A stretch of DNA of 60,101 bases from Promethearchaeota archaeon. Its GTDB lineage: Archaea; Asgardarchaeota; Lokiarchaeia; Sigyniarchaeales; SOKP01. The position numbers and the translations under genes are program-made. Shown here piece after piece: positions 20,222 to 42,338 of this stretch (the stretch's first letter is position 1; each line of letters opens with the position of its first letter). The notes beneath the pieces are model-generated. The model did not search any database. It saw only the letters and a list, made by a program, of their open reading frames with translations, and had not been told where the DNA came from. The stretch covers positions 1 through 60,101 of the forward strand of contig JBHLON010000021.1 in the NCBI GenBank assembly GCA_048940445.1, in the 5' to 3' direction.

Positions 20222-20226
20222 GGTGT
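20222..20226 (+). promoter_or_regulatory. Shine-Dalgarno GGTGT 6 nt upstream of the ATT start of rpoE1
   Basis: GGTGT-CCTGCA-ATT. Confidence 0.6.
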
Positions 20227-20232
20227 CCTGCA

Positions 20233-20829
20233 ATTTTTAAACTCTTTCAAATTCAAGGTAAAATTGAGATTCCTCCGTTCTTATTTGATCAACCTAAAGA
20301 AGTTTCGGCTCGCATAATTCTCTCTGAGGATTATGAGGGAATAATTACGAAAGATTATGGATTTATAATTGCTATAGTCGATGTCGTTGATGTTGGACCT
20401 GGAATTATCATTCCTGGAAATGCCAACACATTTCATGAAGTGGAGTTTACAATTCTAGCCTTTAAACCAGTTATCTCAGAGGTTGTGGAAGGAGAAGTTG
20501 TAGAAGTAGTAGATTTCGGAGCTTTCATAAGACTAGGACCTTTAGATGGGCTAGTTCATGTATCTCAGATCTGTGATGATTATATTTCCTACGAACAAGT
20601 AGGAAATCGATTCATCGGGAAGGAAACGGGAAAAATTCTGGAAGTTAATGATGTTGTAAGATCAAAGATTATTGCTGTTTCATTAGGTACCGGTAGAAGT
20701 GGGAAATTAGGATTAACAATGAGACAAAAATTCTTAGGTAAAGAAGAGTGGATTACACAAGATATTGAAGAAGAGTTTTCGGCGAAAGAAGAAAAAAAGA
20801 CAGATGAAAAAGCCGATATTGAAAAATAA
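20233..20829 (+). CDS. rpoE1: DNA-directed RNA polymerase subunit E' (Rpo7); probable ATT start at 20233 (track start 20440 is internal)
   Basis: Frame extends upstream as (I)FKLFQIQGKIEIPPFLF...YEG...G.IIAI; S1 domain DFGAFIRLGPLDGLVHVSQI; in-frame TAA at 20173 with no ATG/GTG/TTG before 20440. Confidence 0.92.
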   Translation: MFKLFQIQGKIEIPPFLFDQPKEVSARIILSEDYEGIITKDYGFIIAIVDVVDVGPGIIIPGNANTFHEVEFTILAFKPVISEVVEGEVVEVVDFGAFIRLGPLDGLVHVSQICDDYISYEQVGNRFIGKETGKILEVNDVVRSKIIAVSLGTGRSGKLGLTMRQKFLGKEEWITQDIEEEFSAKEEKKTDEKADIEK

Positions 20830-20839
20830 AGATAAAGAA

Positions 20840-20844
20840 GGTGT
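20840..20844 (+). promoter_or_regulatory. Shine-Dalgarno GGTGT 6 nt upstream of the ATT start of spt4
   Basis: AAGGTGT-ATTACT-ATT. Confidence 0.65.
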
Positions 20845-20850
20845 ATTACT

Positions 20851-21042
20851 ATTTCAAAAGAGCGCGCATGTAAGAATTGCCATTTAATAACAAAAAATGA
20901 GCAAATCTGTCCTAAATGTAAAACTCACAGTCTAAGTGATGATTTTACAGGGGAAGTTATAATTATACAACCTCAAGAATCAAAATTTGCTGAATACTTG
21001 AAAATTCATTTTCCTGGTAAGTATGCGTTAAGAGTTCGCTAA
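20851..21042 (+). CDS. spt4: Transcription elongation factor Spt4 (RpoE''), ATT start; missed by ORF track
   Basis: Manual translation (I)SKERACKNCHLITKNEQICPKCKTHSLSDDFTGEVIIIQPQESKFAEYLKIHFPGKYALRVR; conserved position after rpoE1. Confidence 0.93.
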   Translation: MSKERACKNCHLITKNEQICPKCKTHSLSDDFTGEVIIIQPQESKFAEYLKIHFPGKYALRVR

Positions 21043-21626
21043 TGTTCTTGCAATATTGATAAAAACTTTTTGACGGCTTTCTGTATTCTCTTATCTAATT
21101 CCACCATCACTATTCCTTCTGGAATAGGTTGTTTTGAATCTGTGATAGGAGGTTGTCCATAAAATATTAAATCTTTTAAATTTTTATCATAATTTAATTC
21201 GGAAATGAGGGGAAGAACTAATAGATCTTCCTCTCCTTCTACAATTTTGATCAATGTTTTTCTTTTTGAAAATAAAATTTTTTTAAATAAATTAAAGCTT
21301 TCTATGTTGATTGTACCTTTTGGGTTCTTAAATTCAATGATCTCCTCAAATAGTTCCTGAGAATTAATAATGATTTTATCTCTTTGAGTTTTTTCATCAA
21401 CAACACAGACACGAATATAATTATTTAAAAAGTTATTTTCAATAAAATCATTAGATACAATATCACCAACAAGGTAAATATTAACTTTAAAGCCCGAATT
21501 TAAAAATTTTCTAATGATTTTCTCAACTTTAGGGATAGTTTCTGTCCTAGTACCAGAAATTAATTTTCCTAATGGTTTGGTAAATTTTGTTCTCTCTTTT
21601 TCGGGTAAATTTAACATTTCCGACAT
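21039..21626 (-). CDS. dpcK: DUF359 family GTP-dependent dephospho-CoA kinase
   Basis: PLG, VGDIV, VDEKTQR, NPKGTI, EGEEDLL, YGQP, EG motifs. Confidence 0.88.
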   Translation of the reverse strand: MSEMLNLPEKERTKFTKPLGKLISGTRTETIPKVEKIIRKFLNSGFKVNIYLVGDIVSNDFIENNFLNNYIRVCVVDEKTQRDKIIINSQELFEEIIEFKNPKGTINIESFNLFKKILFSKRKTLIKIVEGEEDLLVLPLISELNYDKNLKDLIFYGQPPITDSKQPIPEGIVMVELDKRIQKAVKKFLSILQEH

Positions 21627-34906: not shown

Positions 34907-35147
34907 TATTGGACCTCAAAATTTATAATAGATGTTTTAAATGATGTGTATAAATAATATAGGTAAGGTCACTTTTTAAACTATCTTTCCCTTTTTCACG
35001 GGACAAAAAGGAATTCCCACACTTAAAGATTTTTATATAGTGTAAACATTTAGTTCAATATCTATAGAATATTTAATTCTCCTATGCGAAATAATTAGAA
35101 TGTTATGTTTAGGTATTTAATATATCTATATTTCACAAATTAACTTA

Positions 35148-38100
35148 ATGATGAATATGCAATTAATTGAACATAGAAAAAAGTCGATTAAAACCATTTT
35201 ATTAATTGGATTATTTTTATTTTTTAATCTTACTCCAATTATGCAATATCTAATCCCCAACGGAACAGAGAAAGATAAAATTCATGATGATATAACTCCC
35301 TCCCTCTCTGAGACGAATAAAGCATATATTCATATTGATAATAATTGGACTGAGACGGCAGCTTTTTATGATTGGTGCATAGGCTTAGGATCTTGGAATG
35401 ATCCGTTTATCATAAAAGATTTAGAAATACATATAAATAGTTCAATTGCAGGGATTTACATCAATAACTCTCAAAATGTTTATTTTATTATAAAAGATTG
35501 TTTAGTGAGCAATAATTCTACGAAAGCATTAAGTGCTGGGATAAGATTGGAAAATTGTATTAATGGTAGAATTACGGATTGCGTATCTAATCGCAATTCA
35601 GTTGGGATTATGCTTATTAATAATTATAATTCATCCATTGATAATTGTAATGTCTCTTCTAATAATTTCGGAGTATACATTGAACAGAGTAGTAGTGATA
35701 TTAGCATCTATGAAAATAATATCTTAAACAATGTAATTCAAGGAGTCAATATTACAAATTCTAACGATAATTTAATCTACAATAACAATTTTAAAAACAA
35801 TACAATGCATGCAATTGATTTGGGTGCAAATAATGCTTGGAATAAAGAGGATCAAGGAAATTATTGGGATGATTATGATGGGAAAGATGCGGATGATAAT
35901 GGAATAGGAGATTCTCCATACATAATTTCTGGTTCTGCAGGAGGGCACGATAATTATCCCATTTGGTGGGATGCCCCTGTTATTAATGTAATTTCCCCCC
36001 TCCCCTACTCATTATTTGGAGTTTTACCGCTTAACTTTAGTGTCTCTTTAGAAGAAGGAGTAAGCCATAGTTGGTGGTATATGATTGATACAAATCCAAC
36101 CAAGAATCAATTCATCACAAATGGGTCAATTGATCCGCTTCTTTGGAGTCTAATGGTAAACGGTTCACATACTATTTTCTTTTATGTCAATGATAGTAGA
36201 GGATACGAAGATTTTGAAGCAATAGTTATTTATAAGGATATTGAAACACCTTCGATTGACATTATCTTTCCTGAAAGTAATTTCATATTTGGAAATAGTT
36301 CATGTAATTATACTATTGTCATCCTCGAATCGAATCTTAATTCAACTTGGTACAAAGTAAATAATGGATCTTCAGTTTACTTTAATGGAATTTCTGGCTT
36401 GAATTATGGTGTTATTTCCGAAAATGAATGGACTTTACAACCTAATGGCTCTATTGTAATAGAATTCTTTGCTAATGACACTATGGGCAATCTAGGAAAG
36501 ATTAACGTAACTGTATACAAAGATATTATCCCACCCATTATTGAACTCGATAAACCAACTCAATTTGAAATCTTTGGGATGGGTCCTCCAGAATGTAATG
36601 TATCTTTTTATGATATAAACGGAGTGAACACAACATGGTATTATTTAACTGATGGAATTACAATAACTCCAACGAGAGAATGGACCGGTGGTATTTATAC
36701 TGAAGATTGGAATGCAATGTCTAACGGAACGGTGACCATTTTCTTTTATGCTAATGATACATTAGGCAATATTGCGTCAGTTAATATATCGATTTACAAA
36801 GATATCATTGCTCCCAGTATTCTTATTAGTGAACCACATCCATACGATCTAGTTGGAGGTAATCCACCTATATGTGATGTGACTTTTTATGATAGAAATG
36901 AAGTCAATACTACCTGGTATCAGTTAACTAATGGTACTTTCACCACAAATTCACGAATATGGACTGGAACAATTGATACTAACGATTGGAGTATGCTACC
37001 GAACGGTACAATTACGATTATTTTTTATGCAAATGATAGCTTAGGAAATATTAATTCTGAAAGTGTTGTTATTTATAAGGATATTATATCTCCTTATATT
37101 ACAATTAATGAGCCAAAAACCAATGAAATCTATGGTCAAAATCCACCTGATTGTGATTTGACTCTATATGATATTAATTTCATTGATAACGTATGGTATA
37201 AATTAACCGATGGAACCACAACTACGAGCGTTCGTGATTGGATGGGTGCTATCAATCTGAATGATTGGAACGCCATGAATAATGGCACTGTCACCATCAC
37301 TTTTTATGCAAATGATACCTTAGGCAATATAGCGACAGCTAACGTTTCTGTATATAAAGACATTATACCTCCCTCTATAACTATTGATAAACCAAATCCT
37401 CATGAAGTATTTGGTGAATCTCAACCAGAATGTAACGTATTATTCGAAGATACTAATGGAGTGGATTCCACATGGTACCAACTAACTGATGGTACAATCA
37501 CCACTGCTGTTCGCGAATGGACTGGAATAATTGCTCCTTCCGATTGGACAACATTAGGCAATGGCACAATCACTATCCTTTTTTATGCAAATGATACTCT
37601 GGGCAATGTAGCGAATAATAATGTCTCAGTTTATAAGGATATCATTGCTCCAATCATAACTATAATTAAACCTGGTCTCCATGATGTATTTGGTGAATCT
37701 CAACCAGAATGTAACGTATTATTCGAAGATACTAATGGAGTGGATTCCACATGGTACCAACTAACTGATGGTACAATCACCACTGCTGTTCGCGAATGGA
37801 CTGGAATAATTGCTCCTTCCGATTGGACAACATTAGGCAATGGCACAATCACTATCCTTTTTTATGCAAATGATACATTAGGCAATATAGCGAATACTAA
37901 TGTCTCAGTTTATAAAGATATCATTTCTCCTTCCATAATTATTAATGAGCCAAAATCCTATGAGCTCTACGGCCAAAATCCACCTGATTGTGATTTGACT
38001 CTATATGATATTAATTTCATTGATAACGTATGGTATAAATTAACCGATGGAACCACAACTACGAGCGTTCGTGATTGGATGGGTGCTATCAATCTGAATG

Positions 38101-41100
38101 ATTGGAACGCCATGAATAATGGCACTGTCACCATCACTTTTTATGCAAATGATACCTTAGGCAATATAGCGACAGTTAACGTTTCTGTATATAAAGACAT
38201 TATACCTCCCTCTATAACTATTGATAAACCAAATCCTCATGAAATATTTGGTCAGGCTGTCCCTGATTGTGATTTAACCTTATATGATAGAAATTCTATT
38301 GATTTTGCATGGTATCAGTTAACAAATGGTATTTTTACTACTGCAATTCGTGAATGGACAGGTATTATTCACATTGATGACTGGAATGCTATGCCTAATG
38401 GAACAGTGACTATTATCTTTTATGCTAATGATACATTAGGCAATATAGGGACATCTAGTGTATCAATCTATAAAGATATCATTGCTCCCAGTATTCTTAT
38501 TAGTGAACCACATCCATACGATCTAGTTGGAGGTAATCCACCTATATGTGATGTGACTTTTTATGATAGAAATGAAGTCAATACTACTTGGTATCAGTTA
38601 ACTAATGGTACTTTCACCACAAATTCACGAATATGGACTGGTTTAATTGATGTCGATGATTGGAATATGATGGTGAATGGGTCTGTGATTTTCATATTAT
38701 ATGCAAATGACAGCGTTGGAAACATAAACTATGAGAGTGTTCTCTTACATAAAGATATTATATCCCCAATCATTATTGTTAACGAGCCTCACTCTCATAA
38801 TGTTTTTGGTCAAATTCCTCCTGATTGTGATTTAACCTTATATGATAGAAATTCTATCGACTACGTGTGGTATCAGTTAACAGATGGCACCCTGACTACA
38901 ACAATTCGCGAATGGACGGGTATTATTCATATTAATGATTGGAATGCAATGTCTAACGGAACAGTGACTATCTCTTTTTATGCTAATGATACTGTTGGCA
39001 ATATAGGGGTATCTAATATATCAATCTACAAGGATATAATAGGTCCGGATATTAATATCATCAATCCAATGCCCCATAGTGTATTTGGGATAAATCCACC
39101 AATATGTGATGTGACTTTTTATGATAGAAATGAAGTTAGTACTACTTGGTATCAATTAACTAATGGCACTTTTACTACAAATTCACGGATCTGGTCTGGA
39201 TCAATTGATATTGATGATTGGAATTTGATGGCAAATGGATCTGTGATTTTTATATTATATGCGAATGATAGTGTTGGAAACATAAATTTTAACAGTATTT
39301 TCTTATATAAAGACATTATATCCCCAATAATCATTATTAATGAGCCTCAATCTTACGAGATCTTTGGCCAAATTCCTCCTATTTGTGATTTAACCTTATA
39401 TGATATTAATTTCATTGATAATGTATGGTACGAGTTAGCCGATGAAATTACAACTACAAATTCTCGTAACTGGACTGGGATTATTCATATTGATGATTGG
39501 AATGCAATGTCTAACGGAACAGTGACTATATTTTTTTATACTAATGATACATTAGGTAATATAGCTACTGCTAATATTTCAGTATATAAAGATATTATAT
39601 CTCCAATCATCATTATTAATGAGCCTCAATCTTACGAGATCTTTGGGCAAATTCCTCCTTATTGTGATTTAACCTTATATGACGGAAATTCAATTGATGA
39701 TGTATGGTATCAGCTAACCGATGGGACCATTACTACAGCAATTCGTGAATGGACTGGTATAATTCACAATGATGATTGGGGCGCAATGTCTAACGGAACA
39801 GTGACTATTACATTTTATGCTAATGATACTGTTGGCAATATTGGAACAGCTAATGTTTCAATTTACAAAGATATAATTGGACCATATATTAATGTCATCA
39901 ATCCGGCCTCCCATAGTGTATTTGGGATAAATCCTCCTGTTTGTGATGTAACTTTTTATGATAGAAATGATGTAAATACTACGTGGTACCAATTAACAGA
40001 TGGTATAACCACGACATCTCCAAGAATTTGGAGTGGCTGGATTTATATTGATGACTGGAATGCAATGTCTAATGGATCAATCACTCTTATCTTTTATGCT
40101 AATGATACCGTTGGTAATATCGGGATGATTGAAGTTTCAATTTACAAAGATATAATTGGTCCATATATTAATATAATTAATCCAACACCCAATTCCGTAT
40201 TCGGAAAACCAGTGCCTAGTTGCACCGTAACTTTTTATGACATTAATGGTTTAGATACAACATGGTATCAATTAACTAATGGTGTTATTACAACTCCTCT
40301 CCGAGAATGGACTAATTTTATCTATACAAGTGATTGGAATGCAATGCCTAATGGAACTGTTTTTATTGTCTTCTTCGCTAATGACACGCTCGATAATATG
40401 ATTTCAGTCAATGTTAGTATATATAAAGATAGTATCTCTCCAGTAATCATTATAAATGATCCGCAACAAGGTCAGTTATATGGAATAACAGCTCCAATGA
40501 TTAATATAAGCGTAAGTGATGCCCATCTTGAAAGTGTCTGGTATCAATTGGATAATGGGTCTATTATCACTCCATATCAAGAATGGTTCGGTTCTATTTC
40601 TCAAGAAGATTGGGACCTGATAGGAAATGGAACTGTAATTGTTCGGTTTATTGCCTATGATTCTGTTAATAATTTAGCCTCAGCTACATTGACTCTCAGG
40701 AAAAATATATTTGATCCCGTTATTATTATATTAGATCCTGTCGAGAATGAATTAACAGGTTTAAATCCACCAGACATAATTCTTTATATTAGTTCTGCAT
40801 CTACAGATACAATTTGGTATCAGATATATAATGCTACTTTCTCTACATCAAGTATAATATGGGACGGCTCCATAAATCTTATAGCTTGGCAAACCTTTGG
40901 AAATGGATCATTAAGCATAATATTTTATATGAACGACACTCTTGGAAATGTAGGATTTGATGTTGTTCTATTGAGAAAAGACACCATATCACCAATTCTT
41001 TTAATCAACTCTCCTACGCCTTTTACCTTATATGGGCTTACTCCTCCAAACGTAAGTATTACTTGTTATGACGAAAACTCAATCTCCTCTATTTCTTATC

Positions 41101-42338
41101 AATTGACAAATGGTGTAACCACTACGTCTTCAAGAATTTGGGATGGCTCGATTCATATTGATGATTGGAATGCTATTGGCAATGGTACGGTAACTATTAT
41201 ATTTTGTGCTGAAGATGTTGTTGGCAATCAAGTTTTTGCTAATCTTACAGTCAGAAAAGACATTATTTCTCCTGATGTGTTTATTTATTATCCTAAAACA
41301 GGTCAATTATATGGTTATCAAAAGCCTTCAGTCTTCTTTTATGTAATTGAAGGAAGTGGCGTTTCTGAGATTTCATATCAATTGATTAGCGATACCTCAA
41401 GTTCTGCAATAATAAATTGGAACGGTGAAATTGCCCAAAGCTTATGGAATGAATTTGGTAACGGCACAATTACTATTTTTATTTATGCTATAGACATCAT
41501 GGGGAATCAAGGCGTTGATTTTGTTATAGTTCGGAAGGATATCATTGCTCCAACCATAATTATAATTAAACCCGGATTATACGATGTGTTTGGTGAATCT
41601 CAACCTGAATGTAATGTATCATTTGAAGATATTAATGGAGTGCATTCCACATGGTACCAACTAACTGATGGAACATTTACCACAAATTCACGAATCTGGT
41701 CTGGATCAATCGATCTTGATGATTGGACAGCATTTGGTAATGGCTCAATCACAATCATTTTTTATGCAGATGATATTTTAGGTAATGTAGCGTCTGCTAA
41801 TGTCTCAGTATATAAGGATATCATTTCTCCATCTATCTCAATACTATCTCCAGCTAAATATCAGAAAATTGGACGAGATGCTCCATTTTTTGAATTAAAT
41901 ATCTTAGAAGGAAACTTAGACTCTTGCTGGTATAGAATTCTTGGTATTGATACGATTATTCTTTTTTCTGGATCCAACGGAACGATTGATCAAATATTAT
42001 GGGAAACAATATGGGACAATACAGCTTTGAATGGAACTATTACCATTCGCTTTTTCGCAGAGGATCGATTGCATAATCTTAATTATAGTGACGTTACTGT
42101 CTTAAAATATTATGAGTCAGAAACGCCCCCTCAACTCCCCACATTTCCAATTGAGCCTCTAGATCTTTTAGCCCTTGGATGTTTAGGTGGTATAGCGATT
42201 TCGCTCCCTTTAATTGTTACAAGGAGTCGAACTTATAAATCAAGTGATAAAAAGAAGAAACATACATTACAGCGAGTACTTATTCTATCAATTTTTCTAT
42301 TAACTTTAGTAACCATAGTAGTTATCACAACTTACTAA
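35148..42338 (+). CDS. Giant cell-surface protein: signal/TM, NosD-like right-handed beta-helix, ~22 Ig-like repeats, two C-terminal TM helices
   Basis: G.GSWNDPFII, Asn-rich beta-helix, GNYWDDY.G.D...GIGD.PY, repeated KD...P.I.I..P...W...NG...FYAND..GN. Confidence 0.9.
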   Translation: MMNMQLIEHRKKSIKTILLIGLFLFFNLTPIMQYLIPNGTEKDKIHDDITPSLSETNKAYIHIDNNWTETAAFYDWCIGLGSWNDPFIIKDLEIHINSSIAGIYINNSQNVYFIIKDCLVSNNSTKALSAGIRLENCINGRITDCVSNRNSVGIMLINNYNSSIDNCNVSSNNFGVYIEQSSSDISIYENNILNNVIQGVNITNSNDNLIYNNNFKNNTMHAIDLGANNAWNKEDQGNYWDDYDGKDADDNGIGDSPYIISGSAGGHDNYPIWWDAPVINVISPLPYSLFGVLPLNFSVSLEEGVSHSWWYMIDTNPTKNQFITNGSIDPLLWSLMVNGSHTIFFYVNDSRGYEDFEAIVIYKDIETPSIDIIFPESNFIFGNSSCNYTIVILESNLNSTWYKVNNGSSVYFNGISGLNYGVISENEWTLQPNGSIVIEFFANDTMGNLGKINVTVYKDIIPPIIELDKPTQFEIFGMGPPECNVSFYDINGVNTTWYYLTDGITITPTREWTGGIYTEDWNAMSNGTVTIFFYANDTLGNIASVNISIYKDIIAPSILISEPHPYDLVGGNPPICDVTFYDRNEVNTTWYQLTNGTFTTNSRIWTGTIDTNDWSMLPNGTITIIFYANDSLGNINSESVVIYKDIISPYITINEPKTNEIYGQNPPDCDLTLYDINFIDNVWYKLTDGTTTTSVRDWMGAINLNDWNAMNNGTVTITFYANDTLGNIATANVSVYKDIIPPSITIDKPNPHEVFGESQPECNVLFEDTNGVDSTWYQLTDGTITTAVREWTGIIAPSDWTTLGNGTITILFYANDTLGNVANNNVSVYKDIIAPIITIIKPGLHDVFGESQPECNVLFEDTNGVDSTWYQLTDGTITTAVREWTGIIAPSDWTTLGNGTITILFYANDTLGNIANTNVSVYKDIISPSIIINEPKSYELYGQNPPDCDLTLYDINFIDNVWYKLTDGTTTTSVRDWMGAINLNDWNAMNNGTVTITFYANDTLGNIATVNVSVYKDIIPPSITIDKPNPHEIFGQAVPDCDLTLYDRNSIDFAWYQLTNGIFTTAIREWTGIIHIDDWNAMPNGTVTIIFYANDTLGNIGTSSVSIYKDIIAPSILISEPHPYDLVGGNPPICDVTFYDRNEVNTTWYQLTNGTFTTNSRIWTGLIDVDDWNMMVNGSVIFILYANDSVGNINYESVLLHKDIISPIIIVNEPHSHNVFGQIPPDCDLTLYDRNSIDYVWYQLTDGTLTTTIREWTGIIHINDWNAMSNGTVTISFYANDTVGNIGVSNISIYKDIIGPDINIINPMPHSVFGINPPICDVTFYDRNEVSTTWYQLTNGTFTTNSRIWSGSIDIDDWNLMANGSVIFILYANDSVGNINFNSIFLYKDIISPIIIINEPQSYEIFGQIPPICDLTLYDINFIDNVWYELADEITTTNSRNWTGIIHIDDWNAMSNGTVTIFFYTNDTLGNIATANISVYKDIISPIIIINEPQSYEIFGQIPPYCDLTLYDGNSIDDVWYQLTDGTITTAIREWTGIIHNDDWGAMSNGTVTITFYANDTVGNIGTANVSIYKDIIGPYINVINPASHSVFGINPPVCDVTFYDRNDVNTTWYQLTDGITTTSPRIWSGWIYIDDWNAMSNGSITLIFYANDTVGNIGMIEVSIYKDIIGPYINIINPTPNSVFGKPVPSCTVTFYDINGLDTTWYQLTNGVITTPLREWTNFIYTSDWNAMPNGTVFIVFFANDTLDNMISVNVSIYKDSISPVIIINDPQQGQLYGITAPMINISVSDAHLESVWYQLDNGSIITPYQEWFGSISQEDWDLIGNGTVIVRFIAYDSVNNLASATLTLRKNIFDPVIIILDPVENELTGLNPPDIILYISSASTDTIWYQIYNATFSTSSIIWDGSINLIAWQTFGNGSLSIIFYMNDTLGNVGFDVVLLRKDTISPILLINSPTPFTLYGLTPPNVSITCYDENSISSISYQLTNGVTTTSSRIWDGSIHIDDWNAIGNGTVTIIFCAEDVVGNQVFANLTVRKDIISPDVFIYYPKTGQLYGYQKPSVFFYVIEGSGVSEISYQLISDTSSSAIINWNGEIAQSLWNEFGNGTITIFIYAIDIMGNQGVDFVIVRKDIIAPTIIIIKPGLYDVFGESQPECNVSFEDINGVHSTWYQLTDGTFTTNSRIWSGSIDLDDWTAFGNGSITIIFYADDILGNVASANVSVYKDIISPSISILSPAKYQKIGRDAPFFELNILEGNLDSCWYRILGIDTIILFSGSNGTIDQILWETIWDNTALNGTITIRFFAEDRLHNLNYSDVTVLKYYESETPPQLPTFPIEPLDLLALGCLGGIAISLPLIVTRSRTYKSSDKKKKHTLQRVLILSIFLLTLVTIVVITTY
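36519..42110 (+). repeat. Intragenic tandem repeat, unit about 279 bp (93 aa), with near-identical blocks
   Basis: Unit starts at 36519, 36798, 37077 and onward at 279-bp spacing; 37407-37597 = 37686-37876; 37137-37406 ~ 37974-38243; 36798-36967 ~ 38472-38641. Confidence 0.95.

Follow-up and report, generated by a model that had tools for sequence, protein, structure and literature searches.

Which codon starts the spt4 gene of this Promethearchaeota archaeon (Lokiarchaeia; GenBank assembly GCA_048940445.1), and how would a ribosome select it? In the window, the whole 60,101-nt stretch of contig JBHLON010000021.1 that we analysed and to which unprefixed coordinates refer, spt4 lies on the forward strand downstream of rpoE (Rpo7). 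Reading the frame directly, we found no ATG, GTG or TTG between the in-frame stop codon that bounds it on the 5' side (TAA, 20833-20835) and the first Spt4 cysteine. A first-pass annotation made from the sequence had drawn attention to this arrangement, and its coordinates for the stop codon and for the absence of canonical starts before the first CxxC hold. As it also stated, Spt4 is missing from the mechanically made list of open reading frames (at least 30 amino acids), which has no entry in this frame because no canonical start precedes the first cysteine.

An intact spt4 gene without a canonical start codon

Downstream of TAA 20833 the frame reads AGA AGG TGT ATT (20845) ACT ATT (20851) TCA AAA GAG CGC GCA TGT and stays open to a TAA at 21040-21042. 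Read from the second ATT, the coding sequence (20851-21042, forward strand) comprises 63 codons and the stop, and its earliest canonical start-type codon lies 49 codons past that ATT. The frame read from 20845 matched the Pfam Spt4 profile PF06093 with an E-value of 2.3e-14 (53.7 bits against a cut-off of 25), and residues 6-65 of this reading cover the whole profile (positions 1-77). When the whole genome was scanned with PF06093, the frame scored 52.3 bits and was the sole Spt4 match in the assembly (3.64 Mb, 93% complete). The translation contains both CxxC motifs of the zinc ribbon, at 20869-20880 (Cys7 and Cys10) and 20908-20919 (Cys20 and Cys23); these zinc cysteines are invariant across more than 100 orthologous loci. 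The product also carries a C-terminal GKYALRVR.

The predicted protein shares its length of about 60 residues, its four-cysteine zinc ribbon, a C-terminal GKYA(L/I)RV motif and an end-to-end alignment (E ~1e-11) with archaeal Spt4/RpoE'' (P. furiosus, PDB 3QQC and 3P8B; M. jannaschii, 3LPE). The position of the gene directly 3' of rpoE' (Rpo7) is shared as well, and the order rpoE then spt4 was the same in all relatives examined. Residues 2-61 of P. furiosus Spt4 (3QQC chain E, 61 residues) align with residues 3-63 of the protein read from 20851 (E 9.8e-12), so that a start at this codon would yield a normal N-terminus, with six residues before the first cysteine compared with five in the solved archaeal Spt4. 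What differs is the start codon, which here is almost certainly ATT instead of ATG. In a protein database search the closest cluster representatives were 86-89% identical to this Spt4 and none reached 90%; because the clusters were built at 90% identity, the lack of a closer match is no proof that ATT-start Spt4 proteins were never called. A convergent 195-amino-acid open reading frame on the reverse strand (21039-21626) overlaps the last four bases of spt4 (21039-21042).

An unusual start codon might reflect a sequencing or assembly error for ATG, a reading favored only by the fact that ATT starts are rare elsewhere. As the first-pass annotation had argued against such an error, we compared contigs from four other sequencing runs belonging to three studies, and these showed no differences at 20838-20853 or at 20233-20235, the start of rpoE; both ATT codons are thus unchanged in every run. 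The same ATT is also present in spt4 of four other species-level genomes, and we consider the chance of an error to be negligible. Alternatively, spt4 of this clade could be a decaying or untranslated gene that has lost its ATG, with the ATT as a remnant. The absence of a canonical start and the omission of the gene by gene callers would fit, but between ATT-start species dN/dS is 0-0.03 at a dS of 0.25-1.3, staying this low even where dS reaches 0.7-1.3, and the 17 nucleotide differences between spt4 of this genome and that of its relative G017 are all synonymous. The protein retains all four zinc ligands and its C-terminal GKYALRVR, no other Spt4 exists in the 93% complete genome, and five species keep the ATT despite a changing spacer. 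Decay is thus very improbable, and spt4 is an intact, functional, single-copy gene under strong purifying selection.

The start codon of spt4

Both ATT codons named earlier as candidate starts (20845-20847 and 20851-20853, forward strand) are present, and only the second proved tenable. It lies 7 nt behind the GGTG core (20840-20843) of a Shine-Dalgarno (SD) site, AAGGTG (20838-20843, forward strand), in the layout already noticed from the sequence: GGTGT (20840-20844), the six nucleotides ATTACT, then ATT 20851. The homologous codon is ATT in three related genomes (G017, G018 and G021) and in MAG YT2_053, and ATG in G019 and G012. In G021, only CAA and ATT stand between the in-frame TAA and the conserved SK(D/E)RAC. 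An alignment of spt4 leaders showed that the ATT is kept in five species though the surrounding spacer varies. The Spt4 start column, taken over 87 distinct loci of Lokiarchaeia, contains ATG 55 times, TTG 19 times, GTG eight times, ATT four times and ATA once. In the genome, TTG accounts for about 12% of leucine codons and GTG for about 12% of valine codons; a column restricted to ATG, TTG, GTG, ATT and ATA therefore behaves as a start codon and not as an ordinary residue.

The start could instead be the other ATT, at 20845, or a non-near-cognate codon within 20836-20866. ATT 20845 is in frame and downstream of the TAA, but it stands 1 nt after GGTG, too near for an SD interaction, and relatives have ATC (G017) or a TAA stop (G021) in its place. 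Non-near-cognate codons, for their part, form no peak at 7 nt behind GGTG genome-wide. We give this alternative as small a chance as gene decay, and from alignment and spacing spt4 almost certainly starts at ATT 20851, 7 nt behind GGTG.

Two further candidates were rejected. The out-of-frame GTG within GGTGT begins a frame that ends after about 10 codons, and a Rpo7-Spt4 fusion by TAA readthrough would have to pass two stops in a row. Elsewhere in Lokiarchaeia, Spt4 of two MAGs outside the ATT clade (loci L064 and L106) seemingly starts at ATA behind GGTGA, and at two other loci (L119 and L122) a candidate Spt4 ATT stands 6 nt behind GGGTGG, beside an in-frame GTG.

The upstream gene rpoE has the same layout

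The first-pass annotation had remarked that two adjacent core genes share this layout, and it recurs exactly in rpoE: GGTGT (20222-20226; GGTG core 20222-20225, forward strand), six nucleotides, then ATT 20233, 7 nt behind the core. The rpoE coding sequence (20233-20829, forward strand) begins at ATT 20233-20235 and ends at TAA 20827-20829, as supported by its Pfam domains and by orthologue alignment. Read from 20233, it encodes an SHS2_Rpb7-N domain at residues 10-62 and an S1 domain at residues 82-153, and ATT 20233 aligns with the ATG, TTG or GTG of orthologues. We rejected the earliest canonical start-type codon of the frame, GTG 20440-20442 (forward strand), as the start. Beginning there would cut off the SHS2 domain, and in contigs from three of the four other metagenome runs a G>A change at 20442 turns it into GTA, which marks it as a freely varying valine codon. 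The expectation that annotation pipelines would miss or truncate such genes is borne out at this locus, with spt4 unlisted and rpoE losing its SHS2 domain when called from GTG 20440.

At the same 87 loci, the rpoE start column reads ATG (51), ATT (21), ATC (5), TTG (5), GTG (3) or ATA (2). In a quick maximum-likelihood tree (IQ-TREE quick search), the ATT and ATC starts fill one clade of 28 species, in which 20 have ATT, four have ATC and four separate members have ATG. A GGTG at a spacing of 6-8 nt precedes all 21 ATT and all five ATC starts (26/26) and none of the 51 ATG starts; each of the four ATG members inside the clade has lost or shifted its GGTG. A promoter-like AAACCAAAAWTT upstream of rpoE was no commoner genome-wide than scrambled controls and was dropped.

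ATT, ATA and ATC starts across the genome

If AUU initiation were routine, as had been proposed, ATT should be enriched 5-7 nt after SD sites throughout the genome. A simple tally of the codons that follow GGTG anywhere was dominated by glycine codons (GGT-G) read in frame. We replaced it with a count confined to the codons that precede the first ATG, GTG or TTG, back to the upstream stop, in 2882 non-overlapping stop-to-stop open reading frames of at least 120 codons. The control consisted of the 54 codons outside the start and near-cognate sets. A GGTG stood exactly 7 nt upstream of 36 of 3315 ATT, ATA or ATC codons compared with 21 of 17939 control codons (odds ratio 9.4, Fisher p 5e-16), a strong enrichment at the spacing found in spt4. 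By codon, the counts were 19/1677 for ATT, 14/1206 for ATA and 3/432 for ATC. The peak is sharp, with 2, 19 and 6 ATT codons at spacings of 6, 7 and 8 nt behind GGTG, and a spacing of 7 is the genome-wide mode for ATT and ATA and a main spacing for ATG.

At the same distance behind GGTG we counted 21 ATG, 14 TTG and eight GTG starts, so that ATT, ATA and ATC make up about 46% of the starts there. In this setting AUU initiation can be called routine. As an overall share the proposal needs qualifying: defining the SD more broadly gave about 54 genes above background, which sets a lower bound of about 1.5-2% of long open reading frames, since the statistic picks up only SD-led cases in long frames. 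At least 40-55 long frames, core genes among them, are affected. The proposal also needs widening beyond ATT to ATA and ATC, together with a few ACG or CTG candidates behind GGTG (C69:1944, forward; C53:3876, reverse; C95:11485, forward; C134:48891, forward). The CTG at C95:11485 precedes an HTH_3 domain that starts at residue 11, and the earliest canonical codon of its frame comes 57 codons later.

In six of twenty candidates checked against Pfam, a domain starts 4-16 residues past the ATT, far ahead of the earliest canonical codon. The six encode a Ras-family GTPase, a RagA-like GTPase, V-ATPase subunit D, SMC, a luciferase-like enzyme and a zinc-ribbon protein. As to how widely the habit extends, rpoE starts with ATT or ATC in 24 of the 28 clade species, whereas in the neighboring family, sampled as 800 kb of one complete genome (31% GC), there was no enrichment 7 nt behind GGTG (2/588 vs 9/3587).

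Several other frames were recorded in the course of this analysis. Within the window, two reverse-strand frames (30966-30652 and 15319-14957) have an ATT 6-7 nt behind GGGTGA or AGGTG and an ATG 6-7 codons downstream, which leaves their starts ambiguous. On another contig, two adjacent paralogous U32-peptidase-like genes (C119:5110 and 6895, forward) share the leader AAAGGTGAAGAAAA in front of their ATT. Also in the window, an exceptionally long open frame extends over about 2400 codons (35124-42338, forward).

SD strength varies inversely with start-codon strength

At the Spt4 loci, a GGTG at a spacing of 6-8 nt accompanies only one of 55 ATG starts, compared with six of 19 TTG, three of eight GTG and four of five ATT or ATA starts. 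Genome-wide, canonical starts carry such a GGTG in 2.6% (ATG), 5.5% (TTG) and 4.3% (GTG) of cases. The species behind the rpoE and Spt4 comparisons are related, so that counts across species are not independent; despite this kinship, the repeated joint changes of GGTG and start codon argue for compensation between SD and codon strength. Because ATG orthologues have lost the GGTG, we infer that a weak codon and a strong, exactly spaced SD together set protein output. The inverse relation in rpoE and spt4 orthologues would then represent compensatory tuning of translation initiation.

The initiation machinery

The SD site AAGGTG at 20838-20843 is complementary to the GGATCACCTCCT 3' end of the 16S rRNA of genus relatives. 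The 16S gene itself was not found in this MAG. Among 42 genomes of the genus, 25 have a 16S 3' end that is canonical through GGATCACCTC, and the three loci that could be read further end in CCT.

The initiator tRNA and aIF1 had been suggested as places to look for a change in fidelity. No such change appeared in the anticodon arm of the initiator tRNA-Met, which we found by motif search and manual splicing on contig C139 (12818-12980, reverse strand). It has A1:U72, a GGG/CCC anticodon stem and a CAT anticodon, and the gene is interrupted by two introns, one of 25 nt after position 37 and one of about 63-65 nt in the T-arm region. ARAGORN detected only 13 tRNAs in the MAG and missed the initiator even with its intron search, and it returned nothing in the loci of relatives. 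A second initiator-type arm with another anticodon was not found in the assembly. Taken as gene sequences, the initiator tRNA of this genome and the anti-SD of the genus both look canonical.

The suggestion regarding aIF1 gave a mixed outcome. In this assembly neither a Pfam SUI1 match nor a tblastn match with the aIF1 of a relative was obtained, and the genes that flank aIF1 in G019 and G021 have no close counterpart. In five other genomes, aIF1 and the 16S 3' end are about 9-10 kb apart on one contig (L140, G019:C22; L151, G020:C34; L149, G013:C181; L157, G011:C86; L155, G008:C3). Five of the six genomes of the genus without an aIF1 match (G012, G017, G018, G023 and G024), as well as the present genome (G000), also lack the 16S 3' end; in the sixth, G004, the 16S end lies on a contig shorter than 3 kb. 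The proximity of aIF1 to 16S and the joint absence of the two in most of these genomes point to an unbinned rRNA-linked contig and not to loss, and the absence of aIF1 here looks like a binning gap.

Where it is present in the genus, aIF1 has no canonical start. All 18 matches (genus g1, L136-L161) are free of ATG, GTG and TTG from an in-frame TGA to the zinc knuckle. This interval has an invariant ATT (reading I-K-D/E-D/E-x-I-C) and otherwise codons of the AAA, AAG or AGT type; the nearest SD-like element to the ATT is a GTGA 10 nt away. In other families the aIF1 genes mostly have TTG, ATG or GTG at this place, with ATA found twice in another family (G037 and G030).

A model for Spt4 initiation

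We propose, with a probability of about 0.88, that spt4 is translated from an rpoE-spt4 messenger by SD-guided initiation at a near-cognate AUU. In this scheme AAGGUG at 20838-20843 would base-pair with the 3' terminus of 16S rRNA, which reads GGAUCACCUCCU in the genus, and the pairing would put AUU 20851, 7 nt downstream, into the P site. There the ordinary initiator Met-tRNA (anticodon CAU) would accept AUU despite the mispairing of its third base. Decoding by this tRNA means that Spt4 should begin with methionine. We infer this decoding, along with the placement of rpoE and spt4 on one messenger, from the sequences described above. Several points weigh against the model: the aIF1 of S. solfataricus is reported to discriminate against AUU in vitro, the species compared are related, the SD core of spt4 comprises only 5 nt (AGGTG), and the rpoE stop lies 21 nt upstream, so close that coupling to rpoE termination may contribute to Spt4 initiation. 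Such coupling cannot explain the ATT of rpoE itself or the genome-wide pattern.

A stronger form of this idea holds that Spt4 is made mainly by termination-reinitiation, with ribosomes that finish at TAA 20827 restarting 21 nt further on, the start codon mattering little and the SD being secondary. The two genes do share strand and frame, with 21 nt between them, and their order is conserved at all loci examined. However, rpoE, behind an intergenic region of about 170 nt, uses ATT with an identical SD spacing, and most ATT and ATA starts genome-wide lie exactly 7 nt behind GGTG regardless of the upstream gene. Spt4 orthologues with weak starts carry GGTG far more often than those with ATG, which argues for SD-dependent initiation. 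Reinitiation as the main route is accordingly unlikely, albeit the most probable of the alternatives that we weighed, and the start codon of spt4 would be ATT even so. A dedicated or modified initiator tRNA could also read AUU, AUA and AUC as cognate codons, removing the mismatch. The use of ATT, ATA and ATC alike would agree with this, and tRNA modifications are invisible in DNA; yet the only initiator-like tRNA found has the CAT anticodon, the GGG/CCC stem and A1:U72, and the ACG and CTG candidates fit single-mismatch tolerance of CAU better than a new anticodon. The lack of a second such arm with another anticodon points the same way, as weak evidence given the 13 tRNAs detected in the MAG. 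We rate a special initiator tRNA as about half as probable as reinitiation, and only slightly more so than gene decay. Of all these readings, initiation at AUU through the ordinary initiator tRNA, guided by the SD, is the best supported.

Discussion

Starts of this kind are rare in well-studied organisms. In E. coli, infC and pcnB are the only confirmed AUU-start genes, and AUU, AUA and AUC give 1-2% of the output of AUG (10.1101/063800); the AUU start of infC serves the autoregulation of IF3 (PMC4705826). The resemblance to spt4 lies in an SD-led AUU start of an otherwise ordinary gene, and E. coli IF3 and the aIF1 of this genus have in common that the gene for a fidelity factor lacks a canonical start. 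The scale is different, with two isolated AUU genes in E. coli and, here, about 46% of the starts 7 nt behind GGTG and at least 40-55 long open reading frames. The initiation apparatus is also unlike that of E. coli, being of the archaeal/eukaryotic type (aIF1, aIF2), and autoregulation, described for infC, is here only a possibility. SD motifs are not prevalent in a cultured Lokiarchaeon (review, PMC7531240), and our full-text literature search found no paper on ATT, ATA or ATC starts in Asgard archaea.

The closest mechanistic framework is the proofreading by aIF1 described for S. solfataricus and Pyrococcus abyssi (PMC4705826; PMC6237735), in which an SD-prepositioned 30S tests the P-site triplet locally; we assume that the same framework applies here. 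The aIF1 of S. solfataricus rejects AUU complexes in vitro (PMC4705826), and given this reported discrimination, efficient use of AUU would need some relaxation. The work on Sulfolobus and Pyrococcus thus describes rejection of AUU complexes by aIF1, while the lineage studied here, as far as its gene starts tell, evidently accepts AUU at many genes.

Near-cognate initiation in the present lineage also has a counterpart outside the archaea. In eukaryotes, initiation occurs at CUG, ACG, AUU and other near-cognate codons, and eIF1 is autoregulated via the poor context of its own start (reviewed in PMC4705826). The same set of single-mismatch codons and, apparently, a weak start in the fidelity factor's own gene are shared with the lineage studied here. 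The eukaryotic cases need scanning and a Kozak context, whereas the determinant here would be an SD at a fixed distance of 7 nt.

The putative ATT start of aIF1 in this genus suggests a possible feedback loop like that of bacterial infC. A wider reading, which we put forward tentatively and regard as possible though somewhat doubtful, is that stringency is relaxed genus-wide. AUU, AUA and AUC, and sometimes ACG or CUG, would be regular starts 7-8 nt behind GGUG, SD and codon would co-evolve to hold expression steady, and an AUU-started aIF1 would close an infC- or eIF1-like loop that sets start-codon stringency for the whole cell. If true, this would place a cell-wide stringency loop in archaea near the eukaryotic stem.

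For annotation, gene callers limited to canonical start codons miss Spt4 and deprive Rpo7 of its whole N-terminal domain, and small GTPases, V-ATPase subunit D and SMC are shortened. Because genes are missed or shortened in this way, inventories of core genes and of 'eukaryotic signature' genes in Asgard MAGs are biased. For the biology of the lineage, this archaeon, whose initiation factors are of the eukaryotic type, appears to tolerate AUU, AUA and AUC at many genes when given a strong, exactly spaced SD. It offers a natural system in which to study the respective shares of aIF1, aIF2, the ribosome and the SD duplex in start-codon selection.
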